Positions 104-45,932 of a stretch of DNA of 64,000 nt are shown here, in pieces. The translations under genes and the position numbers were made by a program. The notes under the pieces are model-generated. The model was given only the letters and a program-made list of their open reading frames with translations, was not told the origin of the DNA and made no database searches. The stretch lies in the sequence record LR877332; one strand, written 5' to 3'. Position 1 is the first letter of the stretch. Each line of letters starts with the position of its first letter. Source of the DNA: Shigella phage vB_SsoM_JK08.

Positions 104-1786
104 TTAAACCATTACAGTAAATCGACCAACTTTCTTCATTTGAAGATGCTGACCGTATGCTTGCGGGTCATGGTCTCTATGTGAAATAACAAAAACGTTA
201 GTATTTTTTAAACTATCTAAAATAGTTGAAATAGCTTTTACACCTTCAACGTCGGTCGCTGAATCAAAAACTTCGTCAAGAATTAACGTGTTTATTTTAA
301 CACCTGAAACTTTTTCAGCAATATCACGCCAAGTAAATAAAAGAGCAATATCAATTCGTGCTTTTTCACCTTGACTGAATGAAGCATAACTAAAATCTTC
401 GCGACCACGGGATTTAATTGTCTCATTAAATTCTTCATCTAATGTAAACACATAATCCGCTTCCATTATTTTAAGATAATGGTTAATCTGCTTATTAAAT
501 AATGGAATGTACTTTTTAATAATAGCACCTTTAATACCAGAATCTTTGAGCATATCAGTCAAAATTCCTCGGTGGTATTTTTCCATTACTAAATTAGTTT
601 TTGTCTTAACAATTTTATCAAGTTCTTCTTGAAGCAGTGCTATTTCATCAGCATGGTCAATAAACTCAGAAGATGCTTTTTCTATAGCCGCTTTAACCTT
701 TTTAGCTTTATCTACTGCTGCGATCAGAGATTGCTTTTTATTGCGAATATCATTTGCCAACGACTGTTGGGTTTTAATATTATCTCGGTATTCATCAACA
801 AGAACTTTTAAATTATCACGATGTGTTGAAAGCTGTTCAAACGAATGCGTACATTCAGAAACTTTATCTTTAATTTTAGAAACAACTTTATCACCGGAAC
901 TCAATTGTGACAAACAGGTTGGACATAATCCACCTTCGTGATACATATTAATGACTTTATTATACGAGTCAATTTTTGATTTAATTAAAACTGCTTCTTG
1001 ACCGATTTTATTAAATGCATCAGTCGGGTCTTCATCTAAAACAATATTAACTAATCTTTCATTAGCTTCTTCTATTTCCGATTTTAGCGTTCTAGCTTCT
1101 TTTGCCAAATCATCATACATATTTTGCAGACGAGTAAGATTGTCACCCGTTAATTTTTTCTGGCGTTCAACGTTATCATTATATATTTTAATTTGTTGGA
1201 TAATACTATCTTTTTTAACGTCAAGCACTTGGTTTTGTGAATTTAATTCACGTATTAGTGCTTTATTAAGCTTATCCATTTCAGCTAATGTTCCTACCTC
1301 AAGCAGGTCTTCCACAAGCTTTCTTCGCGCAGGGGTCGACAAACCCATGAAAGGGGTATACCCTGCTGTACCAAGGACAACAATCTGCTTGAAACTGGCA
1401 TATGACATTCCGATAAGCTGTTCAAATTCTGCTTGGAAATCTTTACTGCTGGCAGATTCATTAAGACGTGTACCGTTAACGGTGATTTCAAAAACGTTCG
1501 GTTTTTGTCCTCTTTTGATATAGTACTTTTTCTCATCATATTCCATCCACAGTTCAACTAAAAGTTCTTTCTTATTTGTGCTGTTTATTAATTGACCTTT
1601 CTTTACATCACGAAATGGCTTGCCAAAAAGCCCAAATGTGATGGCTTCTAACATAGTAGACTTACCACCGCCATTTCGTCCAGTAATAAGAGTTTTTTGA
1701 ACCTTATCTAATTGAATGTCAATAGGATTTCCACCTACTGACATTATATTTTGATACCTAACTCGGTTTAGTTTAAAATTCTTCAC
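104..1786 (-). CDS. 46: recombination endonuclease subunit gp46 (Rad50/SbcC-like ATPase)
   Basis: 560-aa ORF; Walker A GRNGGGKST near N-terminus, long coiled-coil middle, signature/Walker B at C-terminus; synteny 46-47. Confidence 0.92.
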   Translation of the reverse strand: MKNFKLNRVRYQNIMSVGGNPIDIQLDKVQKTLITGRNGGGKSTMLEAITFGLFGKPFRDVKKGQLINSTNKKELLVELWMEYDEKKYYIKRGQKPNVFEITVNGTRLNESASSKDFQAEFEQLIGMSYASFKQIVVLGTAGYTPFMGLSTPARRKLVEDLLEVGTLAEMDKLNKALIRELNSQNQVLDVKKDSIIQQIKIYNDNVERQKKLTGDNLTRLQNMYDDLAKEARTLKSEIEEANERLVNIVLDEDPTDAFNKIGQEAVLIKSKIDSYNKVINMYHEGGLCPTCLSQLSSGDKVVSKIKDKVSECTHSFEQLSTHRDNLKVLVDEYRDNIKTQQSLANDIRNKKQSLIAAVDKAKKVKAAIEKASSEFIDHADEIALLQEELDKIVKTKTNLVMEKYHRGILTDMLKDSGIKGAIIKKYIPLFNKQINHYLKIMEADYVFTLDEEFNETIKSRGREDFSYASFSQGEKARIDIALLFTWRDIAEKVSGVKINTLILDEVFDSATDVEGVKAISTILDSLKNTNVFVISHRDHDPQAYGQHLQMKKVGRFTVMV

Positions 1787-2046: not shown

Positions 2047-2233
2047 TATCTAAAATGTTGAAGTTAAAGGATACAGCCCAGTCAGTGCAGACCGTAACCT
2101 TTTTAATACAATTATCTTCAACCTCTAGCGGTTCAAACCAATATTCAATAATTTCTTTATGCCCAATATCATCTTTTACTTCGCATTCAAAATGCTGACT
2201 CATCATAACATTTTTAAATTCATCAAAAGTCAT
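1970..2233 (-). CDS. hypothetical protein (46.x-like small ORF)
   Basis: 87-aa ORF; stop overlaps gp47 start region. Confidence 0.4.
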   Translation of the reverse strand: MTFDEFKNVMMSQHFECEVKDDIGHKEIIEYWFEPLEVEDNCIKKVTVCTDWAVSFNFNILDNDTPKSLRDMAVSCIKDAYCEVFDI

Positions 2234-3249
2234 TGTGTTGCCTCTACATATAACTGATTTGCATATTGAATAAGTGCTTCACGGTCAGAATCAGTGATGT
2301 CTGGAATTGCATTAATGTATTCTTCCATCAACGTCTGAAGAGATTGAACTTCAACCTCTTCGCTGTCATCTGACCCGACAGAGTTATCAATCTTTGACAC
2401 AACTCGTAATGAATGCACAACTTTTTCTAGTTCAGATTCGAACTTCGTCAGATTTTTGTCTACTTCAGTTACTATAACACGTACTGATAGATTTGTAAAA
2501 TCTTTATAGTCAATTTTTCCTTTAAATGGATAATGAATTCTACGATGCCAGGTAGTGTTGTTTGGAATAAATTCCATTCGTTCTGTTTCTGTATCAAACA
2601 TCCAGAACCCACGAGGGTCATTCTCGTCACCTGCTGTTAGTGTCCATGGTGTCCCAATATATCTGACGTTAGCAGCCTCAGAAATAGTATGGAAGTGACC
2701 AGACCACACTTCTTTATAAGTCTTAAGGAAATCAGGTTCAAGACCATGAGATTTCATTCCTTTATAAAAATAAAATCCATTCAGTTCCCAGTGACCGACG
2801 CAAAAAGAAGCAGATGAAGTTTTGATATGCTCAAGAATTTCACCAGTATTTTCTTCACACATCCAAGGAATTAAATCAATTAAACATCCGTCAAAATCTA
2901 CTGTAGTAGGCTTATCATATACTTTAACATTAGGATATTTAGCCAAAAGCTCAGTAGAGGCATTTGGATGCATTACATTTTTGTAGTGGAGATCGTGATT
3001 TCCTACAATAGTATGTAATGTGATTCCAGCGTCATCAAGCATTTGAACTATTTCACGGGCAAACTCCATAGTTTTATGCGTGATTGCTTTTCGCACATCA
3101 AAAATATCACCATATTGAATCCATACAGTAATTCCATTTTTCTTAGAATATTCTATCGCTTGCTTAATTCCATCAATTTGAATACCGCGAATCCACTCAT
3201 CATCAGCTTTAACGCCTAAATGCCAATCACCCAAGTTTAGTATTTTCAT
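2230..3249 (-). CDS. 47: recombination endonuclease subunit gp47 (Mre11/SbcD-like phosphoesterase)
   Basis: 339-aa ORF; N-terminal GDWHLG phosphoesterase motif, GNHD motif; adjacent to gp46. Confidence 0.92.
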   Translation of the reverse strand: MKILNLGDWHLGVKADDEWIRGIQIDGIKQAIEYSKKNGITVWIQYGDIFDVRKAITHKTMEFAREIVQMLDDAGITLHTIVGNHDLHYKNVMHPNASTELLAKYPNVKVYDKPTTVDFDGCLIDLIPWMCEENTGEILEHIKTSSASFCVGHWELNGFYFYKGMKSHGLEPDFLKTYKEVWSGHFHTISEAANVRYIGTPWTLTAGDENDPRGFWMFDTETERMEFIPNNTTWHRRIHYPFKGKIDYKDFTNLSVRVIVTEVDKNLTKFESELEKVVHSLRVVSKIDNSVGSDDSEEVEVQSLQTLMEEYINAIPDITDSDREALIQYANQLYVEATQ

Positions 3250-3850
3250 GGTGTCTTTTCCATCCTAATTTAGCTGCTTTTGAAACCAGTTCTTTAATTT
3301 TTCCTTTTGTCCATTCAGGACCAGGAGGTTCATGACATAACATTTGCTTAACTCCGTTATTATACCATTTTTTACCTTTATTATGTGATGAAGCTTTAAA
3401 TTTATTTGACCTTCCTTTTACATAACCTTCTGGAATATAAGGCAAAAAGGCAGATTTTCCTGTTAATGGATCATGTGAATGTATATTTCCTTTACAATTA
3501 TGAGAACCATATAATGGATGATTTTGTCCTTTATTATCTCTTCCAAACGAACCTTTTGGAGCAGCATATGACATATTAAAGAATAATGGATTTTTAACTG
3601 CATCATGCAATCGTTGATAATATAACTCGCATTTAATAGCTTCTTCACGCGTATCAAATTCAGCTAAAATGCATGAATCAAATAAGTGAGGATTATCTGA
3701 AAGCTCTTTATTATAAATTTTCTTATACTTTTTAGATAAAACTGAACCATGATATCCAGCTAAATGCCTATCTAAAGACGTAGATCCAATATAAAAAGGA
3801 GGAAGTTTATCTCCACTATATATTGTTAAATAAGTTATATATTTTTTCAT
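3227..3850 (-). CDS. GIY-YIG family endonuclease-like protein (putative free-standing homing endonuclease)
   Basis: 207-aa ORF; N-terminus YITYLTIYSGDKLPPFYIGSTSLDRHLAGYHG matches GIY-(10)-YIG spacing with downstream Arg/His and conserved Glu (TREEAIKCE); basic Gly/Lys-rich C-terminal half. Confidence 0.6.
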   Translation of the reverse strand: MKKYITYLTIYSGDKLPPFYIGSTSLDRHLAGYHGSVLSKKYKKIYNKELSDNPHLFDSCILAEFDTREEAIKCELYYQRLHDAVKNPLFFNMSYAAPKGSFGRDNKGQNHPLYGSHNCKGNIHSHDPLTGKSAFLPYIPEGYVKGRSNKFKASSHNKGKKWYNNGVKQMLCHEPPGPEWTKGKIKELVSKAAKLGWKRHHENTKLG

Positions 3851-3999
3851 ATATCAAGAACCGTCATTGAAATGCAAAATAAAATTATTGAAATAAACCC
3901 ATCTGGCGTGCTAAAGAACCCAATCCAACATGCTCTAGTGAATAGATAAAATGCAAGAAAAAGTATCACATATCCAAGAAATATCATTATATCAAACTC

Positions 4000-4028
4000 C
4001 GTATAAAGCTAAAGGGCCGAAGCCCTTT
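4000..4028 (-). terminator. hairpin terminator (UUCG tetraloop on minus strand) at a-gt 3' end
   Basis: aaagggc-cgaa-gcccttt inverted repeat at 4011-4028 followed by U-rich tract on minus strand. Confidence 0.4.
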
Positions 4029-5229
4029 ATTTTGTAATAATGTCAAACTGTTCTTTAAAGCAGAAGCTTGAATCTTGATGCTGATACAAAAATTCATAAG
4101 CTTTTTCGCGTTCACGGTCATAAAGAGTTCGGTCAGATGACAGTTCTTTAATACGTTCAAATGTTGATTCCATGTCATTTTCATCAAACCAAATGATACC
4201 GCTATCATGCGAGGTCAAAGGAGTATTATCAACACGGAATTTTAAATTTTCGCCAGTAGATTTCCAAAATACCGGAATTGTTCCACATGCACCAAGCTCG
4301 AGATGAGTATATTCTAAAGAACGTTGTAGATATTTTTTGTCCAACTTACTCAGCTGATAACCAAATCCGGATTTACTCATGCGTTCAAGCATTTCGCTAT
4401 TTACATAACGGTCAAGAATTTGCGTTGGCAAATTAGGAGCAATTTTAATTTGGTCTACTTGATGAAGACGATAATACTCGTATGGAATTCCTTTTTCTTT
4501 AATAGGAATGAACGCTGGAGAACGTTCCAGACCTTCCATAATAGTACTTAGTCCTGCAGGTTTAAGATGTTTTTCGTGAAAATCAAACATCTGATAAAAA
4601 CCTTTCCATGTAGTCGTACGACCAATCCAACGGTTGACATTCATGTTAATTTCAGAAACATCTTTCCAGTAGGTTGACCGAACCTTCGCAATATCCATAG
4701 GAGGCTGAAAGTTATATACGGTCGGCGCTTCTTCAATATCATCAAACAGAGAAACAGTTTCTGGATACCATTCTTTCATCAGAACTTTATTAAAATCACC
4801 ATTATCAGAATGGCTAAAAATAACATCAGCTCGACGAACAGTTTCTTCTAATCCCAAATTTCGACGCAAAGAAAGAGAAGAATGGTCATGTTGATAAACT
4901 ACAACACGAACAGAAGGTTTAATGTTATCAATAATTTTTTTATAGTTATTAATAGTGTCTTCTTCAACCGAAGTAGCAGGAACTGAATTGATAATTAGAA
5001 TATCACAATCATTTACCAGCTTAAGTGTTTTATCGTATTCTTTTGCCAATAAAACCGGAATTGAAAATGATTTATAATCATGCGCACAGTTACGAGTAAA
5101 TGATTTATCTTTGGCATAAACCAAAGTTACTTCATGACCATTTTTAATAAACCAATCACGTTGCTCAAGAGAAAATTTAGTTACACCGCAACCTTCAAGA
5201 CCTCGAGCCATAAAAATACATACTTTCAT
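4027..5229 (-). CDS. a-gt: DNA alpha-glucosyltransferase
   Basis: 400-aa ORF closely matching recalled T4 alpha-glucosyltransferase along its whole length (e.g. MARGLEGCGVTKFSLEQRDWF). Confidence 0.85.
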   Translation of the reverse strand: MKVCIFMARGLEGCGVTKFSLEQRDWFIKNGHEVTLVYAKDKSFTRNCAHDYKSFSIPVLLAKEYDKTLKLVNDCDILIINSVPATSVEEDTINNYKKIIDNIKPSVRVVVYQHDHSSLSLRRNLGLEETVRRADVIFSHSDNGDFNKVLMKEWYPETVSLFDDIEEAPTVYNFQPPMDIAKVRSTYWKDVSEINMNVNRWIGRTTTWKGFYQMFDFHEKHLKPAGLSTIMEGLERSPAFIPIKEKGIPYEYYRLHQVDQIKIAPNLPTQILDRYVNSEMLERMSKSGFGYQLSKLDKKYLQRSLEYTHLELGACGTIPVFWKSTGENLKFRVDNTPLTSHDSGIIWFDENDMESTFERIKELSSDRTLYDREREKAYEFLYQHQDSSFCFKEQFDIITK

Positions 5230-5261
5230 TTAATATCCTCATTGTTTTGGTTTATTTTACC

Positions 5262-9571: not shown

Positions 9572-10042
9572 TTAATCATGTGTCCACACCCCATCGGTAT
9601 TTGACCAAAGTCGCTGATTATCTGATCCTCGCCACAGCTTTTTGGTCGGAAGATTTTTCTCATACTTCCCATCAATAATAACATCAACATATTTAAGCAT
9701 TTCTAGTTGTTTAATATCTTCAAACTTATATCCTGTCCACAACCAAATGCTTTTATTTGGATAAAGATTTTTTACTGTTTGAACAATGCAATGAATAACA
9801 TCTCGATTATCAGGATAGAGAGGGTCTCCTCCAGTTATAGTTAATCCTTCTATATAATCATTATTCAAACATTCAATTAATTGTTCTAGTGTTTCACCAG
9901 TGAATGGAATACCATTTCTAGCATTCCATGTTGATTTATTATAACACCCTTCGCATTTATGCAAACAACCTGTAACGAAAAGAACGACCCTGCAACCAGG
10001 GCCATTCACAAAATCGCAAGGATAAAATCTATCATAATTCAT
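9572..10042 (-). CDS. nrdG: anaerobic ribonucleotide reductase activating protein (radical SAM)
   Basis: 156-aa ORF; Cys cluster CRVVLFVTGCLHKCEGC; overlaps nrdD stop. Confidence 0.9.
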   Translation of the reverse strand: MNYDRFYPCDFVNGPGCRVVLFVTGCLHKCEGCYNKSTWNARNGIPFTGETLEQLIECLNNDYIEGLTITGGDPLYPDNRDVIHCIVQTVKNLYPNKSIWLWTGYKFEDIKQLEMLKYVDVIIDGKYEKNLPTKKLWRGSDNQRLWSNTDGVWTHD

Positions 10043-11856
10043 TGGTGTTTAACCCTATGCATGATTTCTTTATTTTTACCGAGATTAAATCCGCGTTCGT
10101 TCGGATTTCCCAAATAACCGCACGTTCTTCTTATTGTGTTCATCTTTTTAGGATCAGTTTCTCCACAAATAGAACAAACAAACCCGTTTTCAGTAGGAGT
10201 CATTTCATGGGTACTTCCACACGTAAAACATTTATCTACTGGCATGTTAACACCAAAATAATCTAAATGTTGTGCAGCATAATCCCAGACAGCCTCAAGA
10301 CCTTTTAGGTTATTTTTCATATCAGGAAGTTCAACATAAGAAATGTGACCACCTGTCGCAATGAAATGATATGGGGCTTCGCGAGAAATCTTTTCAAACG
10401 GAGTAATATTTTCTTCTACTGAAACATGGAAACTGTTAGTGTACCATCCTTTATCGGTAACATCTTTTACACTTCCATATTTTTCTGTATCAAGTTTACA
10501 GAAGCGATAACAAAGGTTTTCAGCAGGAGTCGAATACAAACTAAAAGCAAACCCAGTTCTTTCAGCCCACTGTTTAAGACGAGCATTCATTTTAGTTAAA
10601 ATTTCTTGTCCAATATCACGACCGACAAGAATATTCAATTCATGAATACCAATGTATCCTAAAGACACTGAACTTCTACCGTTTTTAAATAACTCAATTA
10701 TGTCGTCATCAGGCTTAAGACGAACCCCGAATGCACCTTCTTGGTAAAGAATAGGAGCAACAGTCGCTTTAACTCCTTTTAAGGAACTAATTCTACACAT
10801 CAAAGCTTCAAAACATAAATCCATTCGCTCATTGAACAATTCAGTAAATTTCTGTTCATTGAACTGTGTTCCAATATAAGAATCCAACGCAATACGAGGA
10901 AGATTCAGTGTTACAACACCAAGATTATTACGTCCATCAAGAATTTCATTACCGGTTGAATCTTTCCACGCGCTCAAGAAACTGCGGCAACCCATTGGAG
11001 AAACAGGAATAGATGAGCCGGTGATAGCTTTATTGTTCTTAGCTGAAATAATATCAGGATACATCCTTTTGCTTGCACACTCTAGAGCAAGCTGCTTAAT
11101 ATCATAGTTCGGATCGTCTTTATAAAGATTAACACCTTCTTCAACGAACATAACAAGCTTAGGGAAAATAGGAGTTATCCCATCACGACCGAGACCTTTA
11201 ATACGATTTTTCAGAATTGCTTTCTGAATCATTCGTTCAGTCCAGTCAGTTCCCGTACCAAATGTAATTGTTACAAAAGGAGTCTGTCCGTTTGAACTAA
11301 AGAGAGTATTTACTTCATATTCATAAGCTTGGAATGCATCGTATACATCTTTTTCTGTTTTAGATTGAGCATAATTTAACGCATCAGCGATTTGCCATTT
11401 TTCTGCATCCTCAATATGTTTTGCATAGGTGCGTTTAACATAAGGAGAAAGTACTTTATCTACATTAGCAAAAGTCGTTCCGCCATATTGATGGGAAGCA
11501 ACTTGCGCAGTAATTTGTGCCATAATTGCAGTAGCAACGCCAATTGATTTAGGAGTTTCAATCTGTGCATTACCTAGCTTAAATCCGTTTTCAAGCATTC
11601 CTTTTAAATCTACTAAACAACAATTAGTAAATGGAAGAGCAGGGGAATAATCAATATCATGGAAATGAATAATTCCGCTTTCATGCGCTTTCATAATAAA
11701 AGACGGGACCATATTTTTGGCAATGTGTTTAGACACAATACCAGCCATAAGGTCCCGTTGAGTTGGAAAAACACGAGAATCTTTATTAGCATTCTCGTTT
11801 AAAAGGTCTTTATTAGTTTTATGAATCAATCCTTCAATTTCTTTTTCAATTGTCAT
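10039..11856 (-). CDS. nrdD: anaerobic ribonucleoside-triphosphate reductase (glycyl radical enzyme), uninterrupted
   Basis: 605-aa ORF; C-terminal glycyl radical motif RRTCGYLG and Zn-ribbon Cys pairs; single continuous reading frame. Confidence 0.93.
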   Translation of the reverse strand: MTIEKEIEGLIHKTNKDLLNENANKDSRVFPTQRDLMAGIVSKHIAKNMVPSFIMKAHESGIIHFHDIDYSPALPFTNCCLVDLKGMLENGFKLGNAQIETPKSIGVATAIMAQITAQVASHQYGGTTFANVDKVLSPYVKRTYAKHIEDAEKWQIADALNYAQSKTEKDVYDAFQAYEYEVNTLFSSNGQTPFVTITFGTGTDWTERMIQKAILKNRIKGLGRDGITPIFPKLVMFVEEGVNLYKDDPNYDIKQLALECASKRMYPDIISAKNNKAITGSSIPVSPMGCRSFLSAWKDSTGNEILDGRNNLGVVTLNLPRIALDSYIGTQFNEQKFTELFNERMDLCFEALMCRISSLKGVKATVAPILYQEGAFGVRLKPDDDIIELFKNGRSSVSLGYIGIHELNILVGRDIGQEILTKMNARLKQWAERTGFAFSLYSTPAENLCYRFCKLDTEKYGSVKDVTDKGWYTNSFHVSVEENITPFEKISREAPYHFIATGGHISYVELPDMKNNLKGLEAVWDYAAQHLDYFGVNMPVDKCFTCGSTHEMTPTENGFVCSICGETDPKKMNTIRRTCGYLGNPNERGFNLGKNKEIMHRVKHQ

Positions 11857-21988: not shown

Positions 21989-22446
21989 TCAGCCTTATAT
22001 TCAATAACAGGACACACTTTAGCTTTACGAGCTTTTAAAAATTCGACGATAATAGATTTCTTGGGTTGAATAGGAGGTAAACCTTTATACGCCCTATCAA
22101 TATTTTCTACATGTAAAGCATAATCCTTTTTCCATTTATAATCTTTATATTTTTCATGCAGTTGTGCAGGAATAACAAATGAACCAATAATAAGTAAAAT
22201 AAGCAAAATGGCAAGTATAAATGCTGATGGAATAAGAGTCCATAAACTACCAAAAATAAGCCATTTCTGTATGATTTCTGCACAGATAATAGTTAGACCT
22301 GCGAGTATAGTACATCCGAAAAAAGAAACGAAAAATGTAGGGATAACAATAGACCAAAAGTATGCACACAGTGTCTTAGGTCGTTTCCATTCGTCGTTAA
22401 ACAGTTTGAATAATTTATAGTGCCAAGAGTTTTCATTAATAATCAT
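21985..22446 (-). CDS. membrane protein (multi-pass)
   Basis: 153-aa ORF with 3-4 hydrophobic helices. Confidence 0.55.
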   Translation of the reverse strand: MIINENSWHYKLFKLFNDEWKRPKTLCAYFWSIVIPTFFVSFFGCTILAGLTIICAEIIQKWLIFGSLWTLIPSAFILAILLILLIIGSFVIPAQLHEKYKDYKWKKDYALHVENIDRAYKGLPPIQPKKSIIVEFLKARKAKVCPVIEYKAE

Positions 22447-22448
22447 AA

Positions 22449-22970
22449 TTATCCTTTCATTGAAGGTGTAACAGTTGTTAAATACTTAATCATAGCTTCA
22501 GCTTCTGATTTTGATAGTGAAATTTCTCCATTGTTTTGACGAATAGAAATAAAATCCGGATGACGGTCACCACCAGCTTTTAAAACACACATATAAGTAT
22601 CAGTTTCATCTTCAATATTTGAAATGATTGAAGCAGTTCCACATGAATGCGGTTTTTGATAAATCAATACAGCTTTTCTTCCGCCATTTGACTGTTCATA
22701 AACTTTTAATACATCAAACAAATCACTTCTTTTATCAATAGCTAAAATGTTATTTTCATCTTCAATGTTAAATCCTTCGGATACTTCATAAAGTGTCACC
22801 CATAAATCGCCAATATCAATAACAGCGTTCACTTTTCCATGACTTTCAAGAGCATGACAAATTTTCTTGATTTCGTCATAACTCATTTTAATAATATCAT
22901 CTCCTTGAATAAGAAAGATGTCATTTTTAAATTCAACACGAATTAAACCACTTCCACTTGAAATAAACAT
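22449..22970 (-). CDS. hypothetical protein, paralog of 22977..23534
   Basis: 173-aa ORF; C-terminus SKSEAEAMIKYLTTVTPSM resembles neighbour's TKDEAIALKTYLDSVIPTM. Confidence 0.55.
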   Translation of the reverse strand: MFISSGSGLIRVEFKNDIFLIQGDDIIKMSYDEIKKICHALESHGKVNAVIDIGDLWVTLYEVSEGFNIEDENNILAIDKRSDLFDVLKVYEQSNGGRKAVLIYQKPHSCGTASIISNIEDETDTYMCVLKAGGDRHPDFISIRQNNGEISLSKSEAEAMIKYLTTVTPSMKG

Positions 22971-36888: not shown

Positions 36889-36964
36889 TGGTCGAGGCAG
36901 TAGGGATCGAACCTACGACCCAGGACTTAGAAGGTCCTTGCTCTTCCTTCTGAGCTATGCCTCG
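36889..36964 (-). tRNA. tRNA-Arg (anticodon UCU), CCA encoded
   Basis: manual cloverleaf: acceptor cgaggca/tgcctcg, T-arm gtagg-gatcgaa-cctac, anticodon loop CUUCUAA. Confidence 0.8.
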
Positions 36965-36968
36965 TATT

Positions 36969-37043
36969 TGGCGGACGTGATAGGATTCGAACCTATAACC
37001 AATCGCTTAACAGGCGATCGCTCTGCCATTGAGCTACACATCC
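36969..37043 (-). tRNA. tRNA-Asn (anticodon GUU), CCA encoded
   Basis: manual cloverleaf with 4-bp D stem, GG in D loop, anticodon loop CUGUUAA, T loop UUCGAAU. Confidence 0.65.
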
Positions 37044-37047
37044 AAAT

Positions 37048-37134
37048 TGGTGGGGAGTGGTGGAGTCGAACCACCCGAGTCGCAATGACAATGAATTTAC
37101 AGTCCACACCGCTACCTCTACGGGATAACTCCCC
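37048..37134 (-). tRNA. tRNA-Tyr-like (anticodon GUA), long variable arm, atypical D-arm
   Basis: acceptor ggggagt/actcccc, T-arm ggtgg-agtcgaa-ccacc, anticodon loop CUGUAAA; anticodon stem has 2 G-U pairs and D-arm connector is irregular. Confidence 0.5.
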
Positions 37135-37143
37135 AAATTAATT

Positions 37144-37218
37144 TGGTGGCCCTGGGTGGAATTGAACCACCATCTGGCGATTATGAGTCGCTTGCTTGAA
37201 CCTTCCAGCTACAGGGCC
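37144..37218 (-). tRNA. tRNA with CAU anticodon (Met or Ile2)
   Basis: acceptor ggccctg/cagggcc, anticodon loop CUCAUAA. Confidence 0.75.
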
Positions 37219-45109: not shown

Positions 45110-45638
45110 TATACTTCCAATGAGCGCTGATTTAGGAGAATCCATGGAAGGTTCTTCTATCGACGTCACCTTTACCGCTCAATTAGAAACAGGTGAAACG
45201 TTAGTATCTATAAATATAACTAGTTACGAAGAAACTCCTGGGGTTTTAGTAGAAGAAAATCGCTTATACGGAACATATGAATCTGTGTTTGGATTTGGAA
45301 ATGACGCGTTGAAATATCGTTTAGGCGATGAATTTAAAACTGCTGCTTCATGGGAAGAACTTCCTACTGATTCTGATACTCAGTTGTATTTATGGAAAGC
45401 TCCTCAAAACCTCCAGAAGACATTCACTTACGAAGTAACATTAATATATGACTACCAAGAACAAAGTGAATCTGGAGGTTCTGGCAGTAATTCTAGGTCA
45501 TCTTCTGATACTACTGAACCGACAGATCCTCCTGCTCCAGTAAGAAAAACTCTCGTTAAAAATTATACTAAAACTATAGTTGGAAATTGGAGTCGTTGGG
45601 CTAATAAATTAAGAAGCTATGTGTATGAGAGGTCATAG
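45081..45638 (+). CDS. hypothetical protein (5.1-like), Ser/Gly-rich
   Basis: 185-aa ORF overlapping the gp5 3' end; start may be a downstream ATG. Confidence 0.55.
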
Positions 45639-45932
45639 ATGTCAGGATTAAGTTATGATAAATGTGTTACTGCTGGTCATGAAGCATGGCCTCCAACAGT
45701 TGTGAATGCTACACAAAGTAAAGTATTCACTGGAGGAATTGCTGTTCTCGTAGCAGGTGATCCAATTACAGAACATACAGAAATTAAAAAGCCATATGAA
45801 ACACATGGCGGAGTGACACAACCCAGAACTTCTAAGGTATATGTCACTGGAAAGAAAGCCGTTCAAATGGCTGATCCAATATCATGCGGTGATACTGTGG
45901 CTCAGGCATCATCTAAAGTATTCATTAAATAG
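45639..45932 (+). CDS. 5.4: PAAR-repeat spike tip protein gp5.4
   Basis: 97-aa ORF with PAAR-like VxxGxP repeats and Cys/His residues. Confidence 0.8.

Follow-up and report, generated by a model that had tools for sequence, protein, structure and literature searches.

A predicted GIY-YIG homing endonuclease gene inserted on the start codon of gene 47 in T4-like phages

Why do some T4-like phages have an additional open reading frame (ORF) exactly where gene 47 begins? We addressed this question in a stretch of 64,000 nucleotides (nt) from Shigella phage vB_SsoM_JK08 (sequence record LR877332), hereafter the window, a Tequatrovirus (T4-like) segment that is colinear with positions 33,199-98,552 of T4. 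The element of interest, ORF207, has 207 amino acids (aa) plus a stop codon, starts with ATG, and occupies positions 3227..3850 on the minus strand in the ORF listing. It is a 601-nt presence/absence insertion located exactly on the start codon of gene 47 in Tequatrovirus. Judging from its sequence, ORF207 is probably a free-standing GIY-YIG homing endonuclease gene of the Seg type that targets the conserved junction between genes 47.1 and 47. We are more confident that it is a Seg-like mobile gene of the GIY-YIG type than in its exact target or in the role that four linked nucleotide changes would have in immunity.

A 601-nt insertion on the gene 47 start codon

A 1.6-kilobase query across the locus matched 523 phage records, and ORF207 was covered in 68 of them. 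The remaining ones, including T4, T2, RB9, and RB33, matched in two pieces with 601 nt missing. The first-pass annotation of the window had proposed comparing this junction in relatives lacking the ORF, and such relatives turned out to be abundant: the empty site is present, as a clean 601-nt gap, in about 430-435 Tequatrovirus records. These counts come from GenBank phage records, which we used instead of IMG/VR, where a scan with gene 47 as an anchor returned only 6 loci, all of them without the ORF.

The boundaries of the insert can be read from the alignment of the window with T4. In T4, as in the other phages lacking the ORF, the stop codon of gene 47.1 overlaps the start codon of gene 47 (...CTTGATATATGAAAATTTTAAATTTAGGTGATTGG...). 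The equivalent sequence in the window (...CTTGATATATGAAAA) now opens ORF207 (MKKYITY...), and 601 nt further on ...GACACCATGAAAATACTAAACTTGGGTGATTGG restores a gene 47 start within the last codons of ORF207 (...HENTKLG*). The insert is flanked by a 7-nt direct repeat, ATGAAAA, with copies 601 nt apart. ORF207 uses the old initiation site of gene 47 and carries a new one. Its ATG shares 4 nt with the stop codon of 47.1 (ATGA, 3847-3850), and at the other end it has 23 nt (3227-3249) in common with the beginning of gene 47. The coordinates, strand, length, and overlap given by the first-pass annotation agree with the ORF listing. The placement of the insertion between genes 47 and a-gt holds on the side of gene 47, but the other neighbor is 47.1, and a-gt lies beyond it. 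The order on the minus strand is gene 46, 46.1, 46.2, gene 47, ORF207, 47.1, and a-gt. As the first-pass annotation had supposed, the T4 annotation has no seg or mob gene at this position, mobB being on the far side of a-gt. The features of the locus are the following:

3227..3850, minus strand: ORF207, predicted Seg-like GIY-YIG endonuclease gene (ORF listing, PHROGs, GenBank annotation)
3536..3850, minus strand: N-terminal GIY-YIG domain of ORF207, residues 1-105 (TIY 9-11, YIG 20-22, E75, N92)
3230..3535, minus strand: C-terminal half of ORF207, presumed to bind DNA, residues 106-207 (two modules and a terminal helix)
3844..3850, minus strand: left ATGAAAA copy, the original start site of gene 47 and now the start of ORF207 (alignment of window and T4)
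3243..3249, minus strand: right ATGAAAA copy, the new gene 47 start at the 3' end of the insert (alignment of window and T4)
3232..3241, minus strand: four synonymous substitutions in codons 3-6 of gene 47 (locus comparison)
2230..3249, minus strand: gene 47, Mre11/SbcD-like recombination nuclease subunit, 96% identity to T4 gene 47
3847..3987, minus strand: gene 47.1, 46-aa predicted membrane protein, upstream neighbor (T4 annotation, alignment)
104-1786, minus strand: gene 46
4027..5229, minus strand: a-gt, beyond 47.1
4010..4029, no strand assigned: GC-rich hairpin in the interval from a-gt to 47.1, resembling a terminator on either strand

About 68 Tequatrovirus records have ORF207 with at least 95% identity. 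Across many species recognized by the International Committee on Taxonomy of Viruses (ICTV), the identity of its copies is at least 98%, with flanks that differ by 5-10% and have shuffled haplotypes. Polymorphisms in the flanking a-gt and gene 47 are likewise shuffled among genomes with and without the ORF, and phage OES_C-3 has an empty site between flanks 98.8% identical to those of the window. ORF207 is not a chance ORF, because it is conserved in these ~68 records and because its distant homologues are under purifying selection (see below).

The predicted protein

The first-pass annotation had recognized a GIY-YIG-type N-terminus, and the motif string is present: TIY at residues 9-11 and YIG at 20-22, followed by a "GY.GS" motif that is the same as in SegA-E. 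The profile search that it had suggested gave a match, which is borderline in Pfam (PF01541, residues 4-84, E=3.1e-4, 21.4 bits) and firm when profiles or folds are compared. The profile of the ORF207 family matched that of T4 SegA-G plus I-TevI with 97.7% probability (hhalign, E=2e-12, 93 columns), and the best match of the predicted fold is the catalytic domain of I-TevI (Foldseek probability 0.99-1.0). The predicted structure of the N-terminal domain has a GIY-YIG alpha/beta fold. A database search returned 170 relatives of ORF207, many of them similar just over the first ~112 residues, after which NUMOD3 repeats follow. We aligned 42 relatives, of which 12 match PF01541 at E<0.01, and the invariant residues are Y7, Y11, G13, P17, Y20, I21, G22, S23, Y33, G35, S39, E75, and N92. 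A joint alignment with I-TevI places Y11, Y20, G22, and N92 of ORF207 at Y6, Y17, G19, and N90 of that enzyme, and E75 one column off its E75. In PHROGs, ORF207 falls in phrog_10820 (E=1e-94), which bears the label "HNH endonuclease", and it matches more weakly phrog_314, "homing endonuclease" (E=5e-18). GenBank labels also vary between "putative homing endonuclease" (BASEL phages, e.g., PaulHMueller) and "HNH endonuclease". Searching the Protein Data Bank by sequence and by profile gave nothing useful for ORF207, and an NCBIfam search no relevant match.

In the C-terminal half (residues 106-207), a helix comes after two modules, "...IHSHDPLTGKSAFLPYIPEGYVKGR" and "KKWYNNGVKQMLCHEPPGPEWTKGK". 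These modules are of a beta-hairpin type with the pattern 'PEG[YW]xKG[RK]' (IPEGYVKGR; KKWYNNG...PGPEWTKGK), and a structure model has a confident hairpin, the second, at residues 161-172 and a confident helix at 186-202. There is weak pairwise similarity between this region and T4 SegE and SegB (VPEGFVKG, IPEGWFKGR, FWVNNG). The first-pass annotation had also suggested searching for NUMOD domains: the Pfam search of ORF207 did not reveal NUMOD3 (PF07460), though the domain is present in 21 of the 42 relatives, and the only stretch that aligns with the start of their first NUMOD3 repeat is 'GQNHPLYGSH'. From the resemblance to SegE and SegB motifs and from the genomic pattern, we infer that the C-terminal half binds DNA.

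This genomic pattern concerns the position of the relatives. The ORF207-type C-terminus is only found in homologues located at gene 47, whereas relatives that have the catalytic domain alone in common, with other C-termini, are found at gene 39 or at genes 19/20. The type of C-terminus thus goes with the site of insertion, a pattern predicted if this part of the protein chooses the target. More precisely, paralogues in Yersinia phage TG1 (locus 2501-3184) and E. coli phage IME281 (locus 2501-3178) lie directly upstream of the topoisomerase gene 39, with an 8-nt overlap, and another one, in a Klebsiella phage contig (locus 2501-3088), lies between the tail-tube gene 19 and the portal gene 20. 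All of these paralogues have C-termini of the NUMOD3 type. The presence of different C-termini at these sites points to domain shuffling with site switching inside the GIY-YIG subfamily of ORF207.

The comparison with known enzymes follows the same lines. Like T4 SegA-SegG, ORF207 is free-standing between conserved genes, has an N-terminal GIY-YIG domain with the 'YIG...GY.GS' layout, is sporadic among close relatives, and its carrier has silent polymorphisms at the presumed target; its C-terminal 'PEG[WFY]xKG[RK]' and 'WxNNG' modules resemble those of SegB and SegE in particular. In other respects it stands apart: it has no orthologue among the T4 Seg proteins (SegG and SegE score highest in pairwise comparison, with 13-14 bits), its site at the 47.1/47 junction is empty in T4, its GIY-to-YIG hairpin is shorter (9 residues from Y11 to Y20, instead of 11-12), and it captures the start codon of the host gene, which it overlaps by 23 nt. 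The modelled catalytic fold and the predicted equivalents of Y6, Y17, G19, E75, and N90 are those of I-TevI, as is the predicted two-part design of catalytic domain, linker, and DNA-binding domain. However, ORF207 is not intron-encoded, the Pfam search detected no zinc finger or helix-turn-helix of the I-TevI type, and the equivalent of R27 is not conserved in its family.

Linked codons, scar alleles, and homologues at gene 47

The first codons of gene 47 (MKILNLGDWHLG) include the phosphoesterase motif I, i.e., the metallophosphoesterase motif, and are the presumed conserved target region of ORF207. Codons 3-6 read ATA CTA AAC TTG in the window and ATT TTA AAT TTA in T4, with the synonymous changes at positions 3241, 3240, 3235, and 3232. 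We compared about 700 nt on each side of the junction in 7 loci with ORF207 and 14 without it. These four sites are the only ones that segregate with the ORF (6/7 against 0/14). The 120-nt right junction is at least 99% identical in 65 of the 68 records with ORF207. The four changes are candidate immunity mutations of the target site.

We then searched phage records with a chimeric query made of the empty site and the ORF-type codons. For 422 records without the ORF there were about 4 mismatches to this query, as T4-type codons predict, the codons being deduced here from the mismatch count. About 9 records lacking the ORF combine an empty 47.1/47 junction with ORF-type codons, among them SHFML-26, BCPEco_001, BCPSen_003, PBM-1, Ec_YwIITB1, UGKSEcP1, UGKSEcP2, and EPIMAM01; SHFML-26 is the one confirmed by reading the sequence. 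In this Shigella phage (NC_031011, locus 836-860), the ORF-linked codons (ATGAAAATACTAAACTTG) stand at an empty junction. The scar sequence is the exact product expected from a deletion between the two ATGAAAA repeats. These scar alleles are either the footprints of a precise loss of ORF207 or resistant alleles that existed before.

A few records have altered copies of the gene. ESh36 (ON528746) has ORF207 with a +1 A frameshift in a run of A, read directly in its sequence, and ZCEC15 shows a protein match in two pieces, as in ESh36. The internal deletion of the ORF in KNP1 and KNP5 (NC_055713) was rejected as a sign of decay, the missing part being an assembly gap of Ns. P922 was considered as a second genome with the ORF and T4-type codons, and rejected, since its intact and slightly divergent ORF207 comes with three of the four synonymous changes. 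Together with ERS-1, described below, ESh36, ZCEC15, KNP1, and KNP5 provide no firm evidence of pseudogenization.

The association of ORF207 with gene 47 extends well beyond Tequatrovirus. Full-length homologues, 50-76% identical, are found immediately upstream of gene 47 and usually overlap it in at least 8 other T4-like lineages, including:

Klebsiella phage SmallBear_ER8: homologue upstream of gene 47, 70% identity, 17-nt overlap
Serratia phage LC53 (Winklervirus): homologue upstream of gene 47
QL01 (Dhakavirus): homologue upstream of gene 47, 14-nt overlap
AV109 (Mosigvirus): homologue upstream of gene 47
Aeromonas phage L9-6 (Biquartavirus): homologue upstream of gene 47, 23-nt overlap
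Erwinia phage FBB1: homologue upstream of gene 47, 14-nt overlap
Two metagenomic lineages: homologues upstream of gene 47, 76% and 73% identity, 23-nt overlap

In the homologues of other genera too, the tail of the ORF ("...HEN..") is encoded by the start region of gene 47. The gene is sporadic in the two other genera that we checked, with 5 of ~150 Mosigvirus-like and 4 of ~127 related Klebsiella phage records, and its frequency of carriage in three genera is 13%, ~3%, and ~3%. For either half of ORF207, comparisons between genera give a ratio of nonsynonymous to synonymous substitution rates (dN/dS) of 0.1-0.4, values that are rough since synonymous divergence is saturated. The comparison of gene 47 codons between phages with and without the ORF was uninformative in the Klebsiella and Mosigvirus groups, where background divergence is too high. 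In AV109 (locus 3301-3560), the 5' part of gene 47, next to the endonuclease gene, is ~75% identical to that of the Mosigvirus NRG-P0074, which lacks the ORF, and the remaining region ~96% identical. From the sequence, this divergent 5' end looks like a foreign co-conversion tract.

We tentatively suggest that the ORF207 lineage may have kept one target, the start of gene 47 with its first codons (Mre11-type motif I, GDxHxG), over at least 9 lineages of Straboviridae in at least 6 genera and down to ~50% protein identity. The 3' end of the ORF would always supply the start codon of the host gene, and the scar alleles would be natural cleavage-resistant variants that record invasion, decay, and loss. 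If this is true, the allele classes of a single locus suffice for measurements of homing, of resistance, and of loss in T-even populations in nature.

Proposed mechanism and competing explanations

Under the homing hypothesis, the C-terminal half of ORF207 would bind, in a mixed infection, the 47.1/47 junction of a genome lacking the ORF (..CTTGATATATGAAAATTTTAAATTTAGGTGATTGGCAT..), a sequence that encodes the N-terminal metallophosphoesterase motif of gp47. The tethered GIY-YIG domain would cut near the junction, and repair of the break by recombination from the genome with ORF207 would copy the gene along with some flanking DNA. The carrier would escape cleavage, its site being split by the insertion and the remaining half altered by the four synonymous changes. 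In Tequatrovirus, translation of ORF207 would use the former start of gene 47, coupled to 47.1, and the replacement start would be provided within its own 3' end. The proposal of a free-standing homing endonuclease made by the first-pass annotation is thus supported by the comparisons above, with the probable site refined to the junction between 47.1 and 47.

Several points weigh against this account. The Pfam score is 1.2 bits lower than the gathering score of PF01541 (22.6 bits). R28 of ORF207 is near R27 of I-TevI, but its relatives have K, R, N, or S there; the active T4 proteins SegA-E are likewise without an alignable arginine at this position, and the nearly invariant K40 and R68 might replace it. 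ERS-1 (PP337211) has the ORF with T4-type codons, in a record flagged as unverified whose ORF contains four indels in homopolymers. Instead of having been selected for immunity, the four synonymous changes may have come with the 3' end of ORF207 as part of the donor sequence, and the shuffled flanking haplotypes could reflect ordinary T-even recombination rather than homing. Within Tequatrovirus, the copies are nearly identical and selection is indistinguishable from recent spread. Finally, the true cleavage site could lie further off, as for SegF and SegG, which cleave at a distance.

The alternative that survives best is that ORF207 is a resident or relic GIY-YIG gene, mobile in the past, the patchiness of which results from vertical inheritance, repeat-mediated loss, and ordinary recombination. 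The scar-type empty sites show that loss occurs, frameshifted copies exist, and an ancient residence could also account for the presence of the gene at this one locus in many genera; T4 SegD, which reportedly no longer promotes its own homing, would be a precedent. We nevertheless consider this explanation unlikely. Near-identical copies in many ICTV species, amid the divergent and shuffled flanks described above, argue against it, the dN/dS values and the invariance of the catalytic residues speak for an enzymatic function that has been kept, and the low frequencies of carriage fit recurrent invasion and loss better than residence.

A second alternative is that the nuclease mainly benefits the phage, by cutting the genomes of competing phages and thereby excluding them, by stimulating recombination or amplification in the region of genes 46/47, or by tuning the translation of gp47, homing being incidental. 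Such roles have recently been assigned to phage homing endonucleases: one study describes SegB-driven amplification of anti-defense loci (PMC13096335), and another interference competition by an intron endonuclease (PMC11620839). The gene also precedes and overlaps an essential recombination gene. Yet, nothing specific to ORF207 points to such a benefit, most Tequatroviruses do without it, and competitor exclusion follows from the homing mechanism and is no alternative to it, which makes this explanation very unlikely. The identification as an HNH endonuclease, which has in its favor only the RefSeq and PHROG 10820 labels, can practically be dismissed as a misnomer, since a Pfam search with E values up to 10 yields no family of the HNH type, and motifs, profile comparison, and predicted fold agree on GIY-YIG.

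The preferred reading, a mobile Seg-type gene, places ORF207 close to SegH/Hef and MobE-type genes, with which it shares presence/absence polymorphism at a fixed intergenic position beside an essential gene. SegH/Hef-type free-standing endonucleases are reportedly described by Sandegren and colleagues (2005) as targeting the neighboring conserved gene. ORF207 differs from these genes in its locus and sequence family, and in that at least 9 lineages of Straboviridae have such a gene at this one site. In a review of T-even phages, SegH/Hef and MobE-type genes are presented as alternative alleles between conserved genes, the neighboring conserved gene being the expected target, and the table of T4 homing endonucleases has no entry at the 47/47.1 site (Edgell et al. 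2010, PMC2988022). Our literature search found no paper on ORF207 or on a homing endonuclease at this site. The capture of the start codon, the scar alleles, and the fidelity to one site across genera are neat features that will not surprise a specialist.

About a dozen homing endonucleases of T-even phages have been studied. ORF207 adds to this model system an uncharacterized, predicted Seg-type enzyme with a defined and testable target. Its locus offers a natural allele series (sensitive empty sites, filled and empty sites that bear the silent changes, and frameshifted copies), which eases the design of tests on target recognition, immunity mutations, and the cycle of gain, decay, and loss. 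In mixed infections, ORF207 would bias the inheritance of the region of genes 46/47 and a-gt, which matters for the interpretation of mosaicism in therapeutic T4-like phages. The label "HNH endonuclease", widespread in databases, is wrong for the ORF207 family.

The window lacks all six mobile endonuclease loci that T4 has in the colinear stretch, i.e., mobB, mobC, the nrdD intron with I-TevII, mobD, segB, and segC (the window positions concerned are 5220-5245, 10022-10042, 11318-11321, 21989-22952, 36934-37199, and 45635-45640). A tblastn search of the 64-kilobase window with 13 T4 Seg, Mob, and I-Tev proteins detected ORF207 as their sole relative. At the position of mobD, the window has two unrelated ORFs, of 153 aa (membrane-like) and 173 aa.

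Scans for sigma-70 and late promoters gave nothing convincing for ORF207 itself, and the late-promoter motif TATAAATA was not found near it. In several genomes of other genera, a TATAAT-like -10 motif, read by eye, precedes the ORF, often just past a terminator-like hairpin. In the window, the hairpin at 4010-4029 (TAAAGGGCCGAAGCCCTTTA) is perfect, GC-rich, and nearly palindromic, and was scored as terminator-like on the plus strand; the records of Yersinia phages fPS-2 and fPS-90 give it as a terminator on the minus strand.

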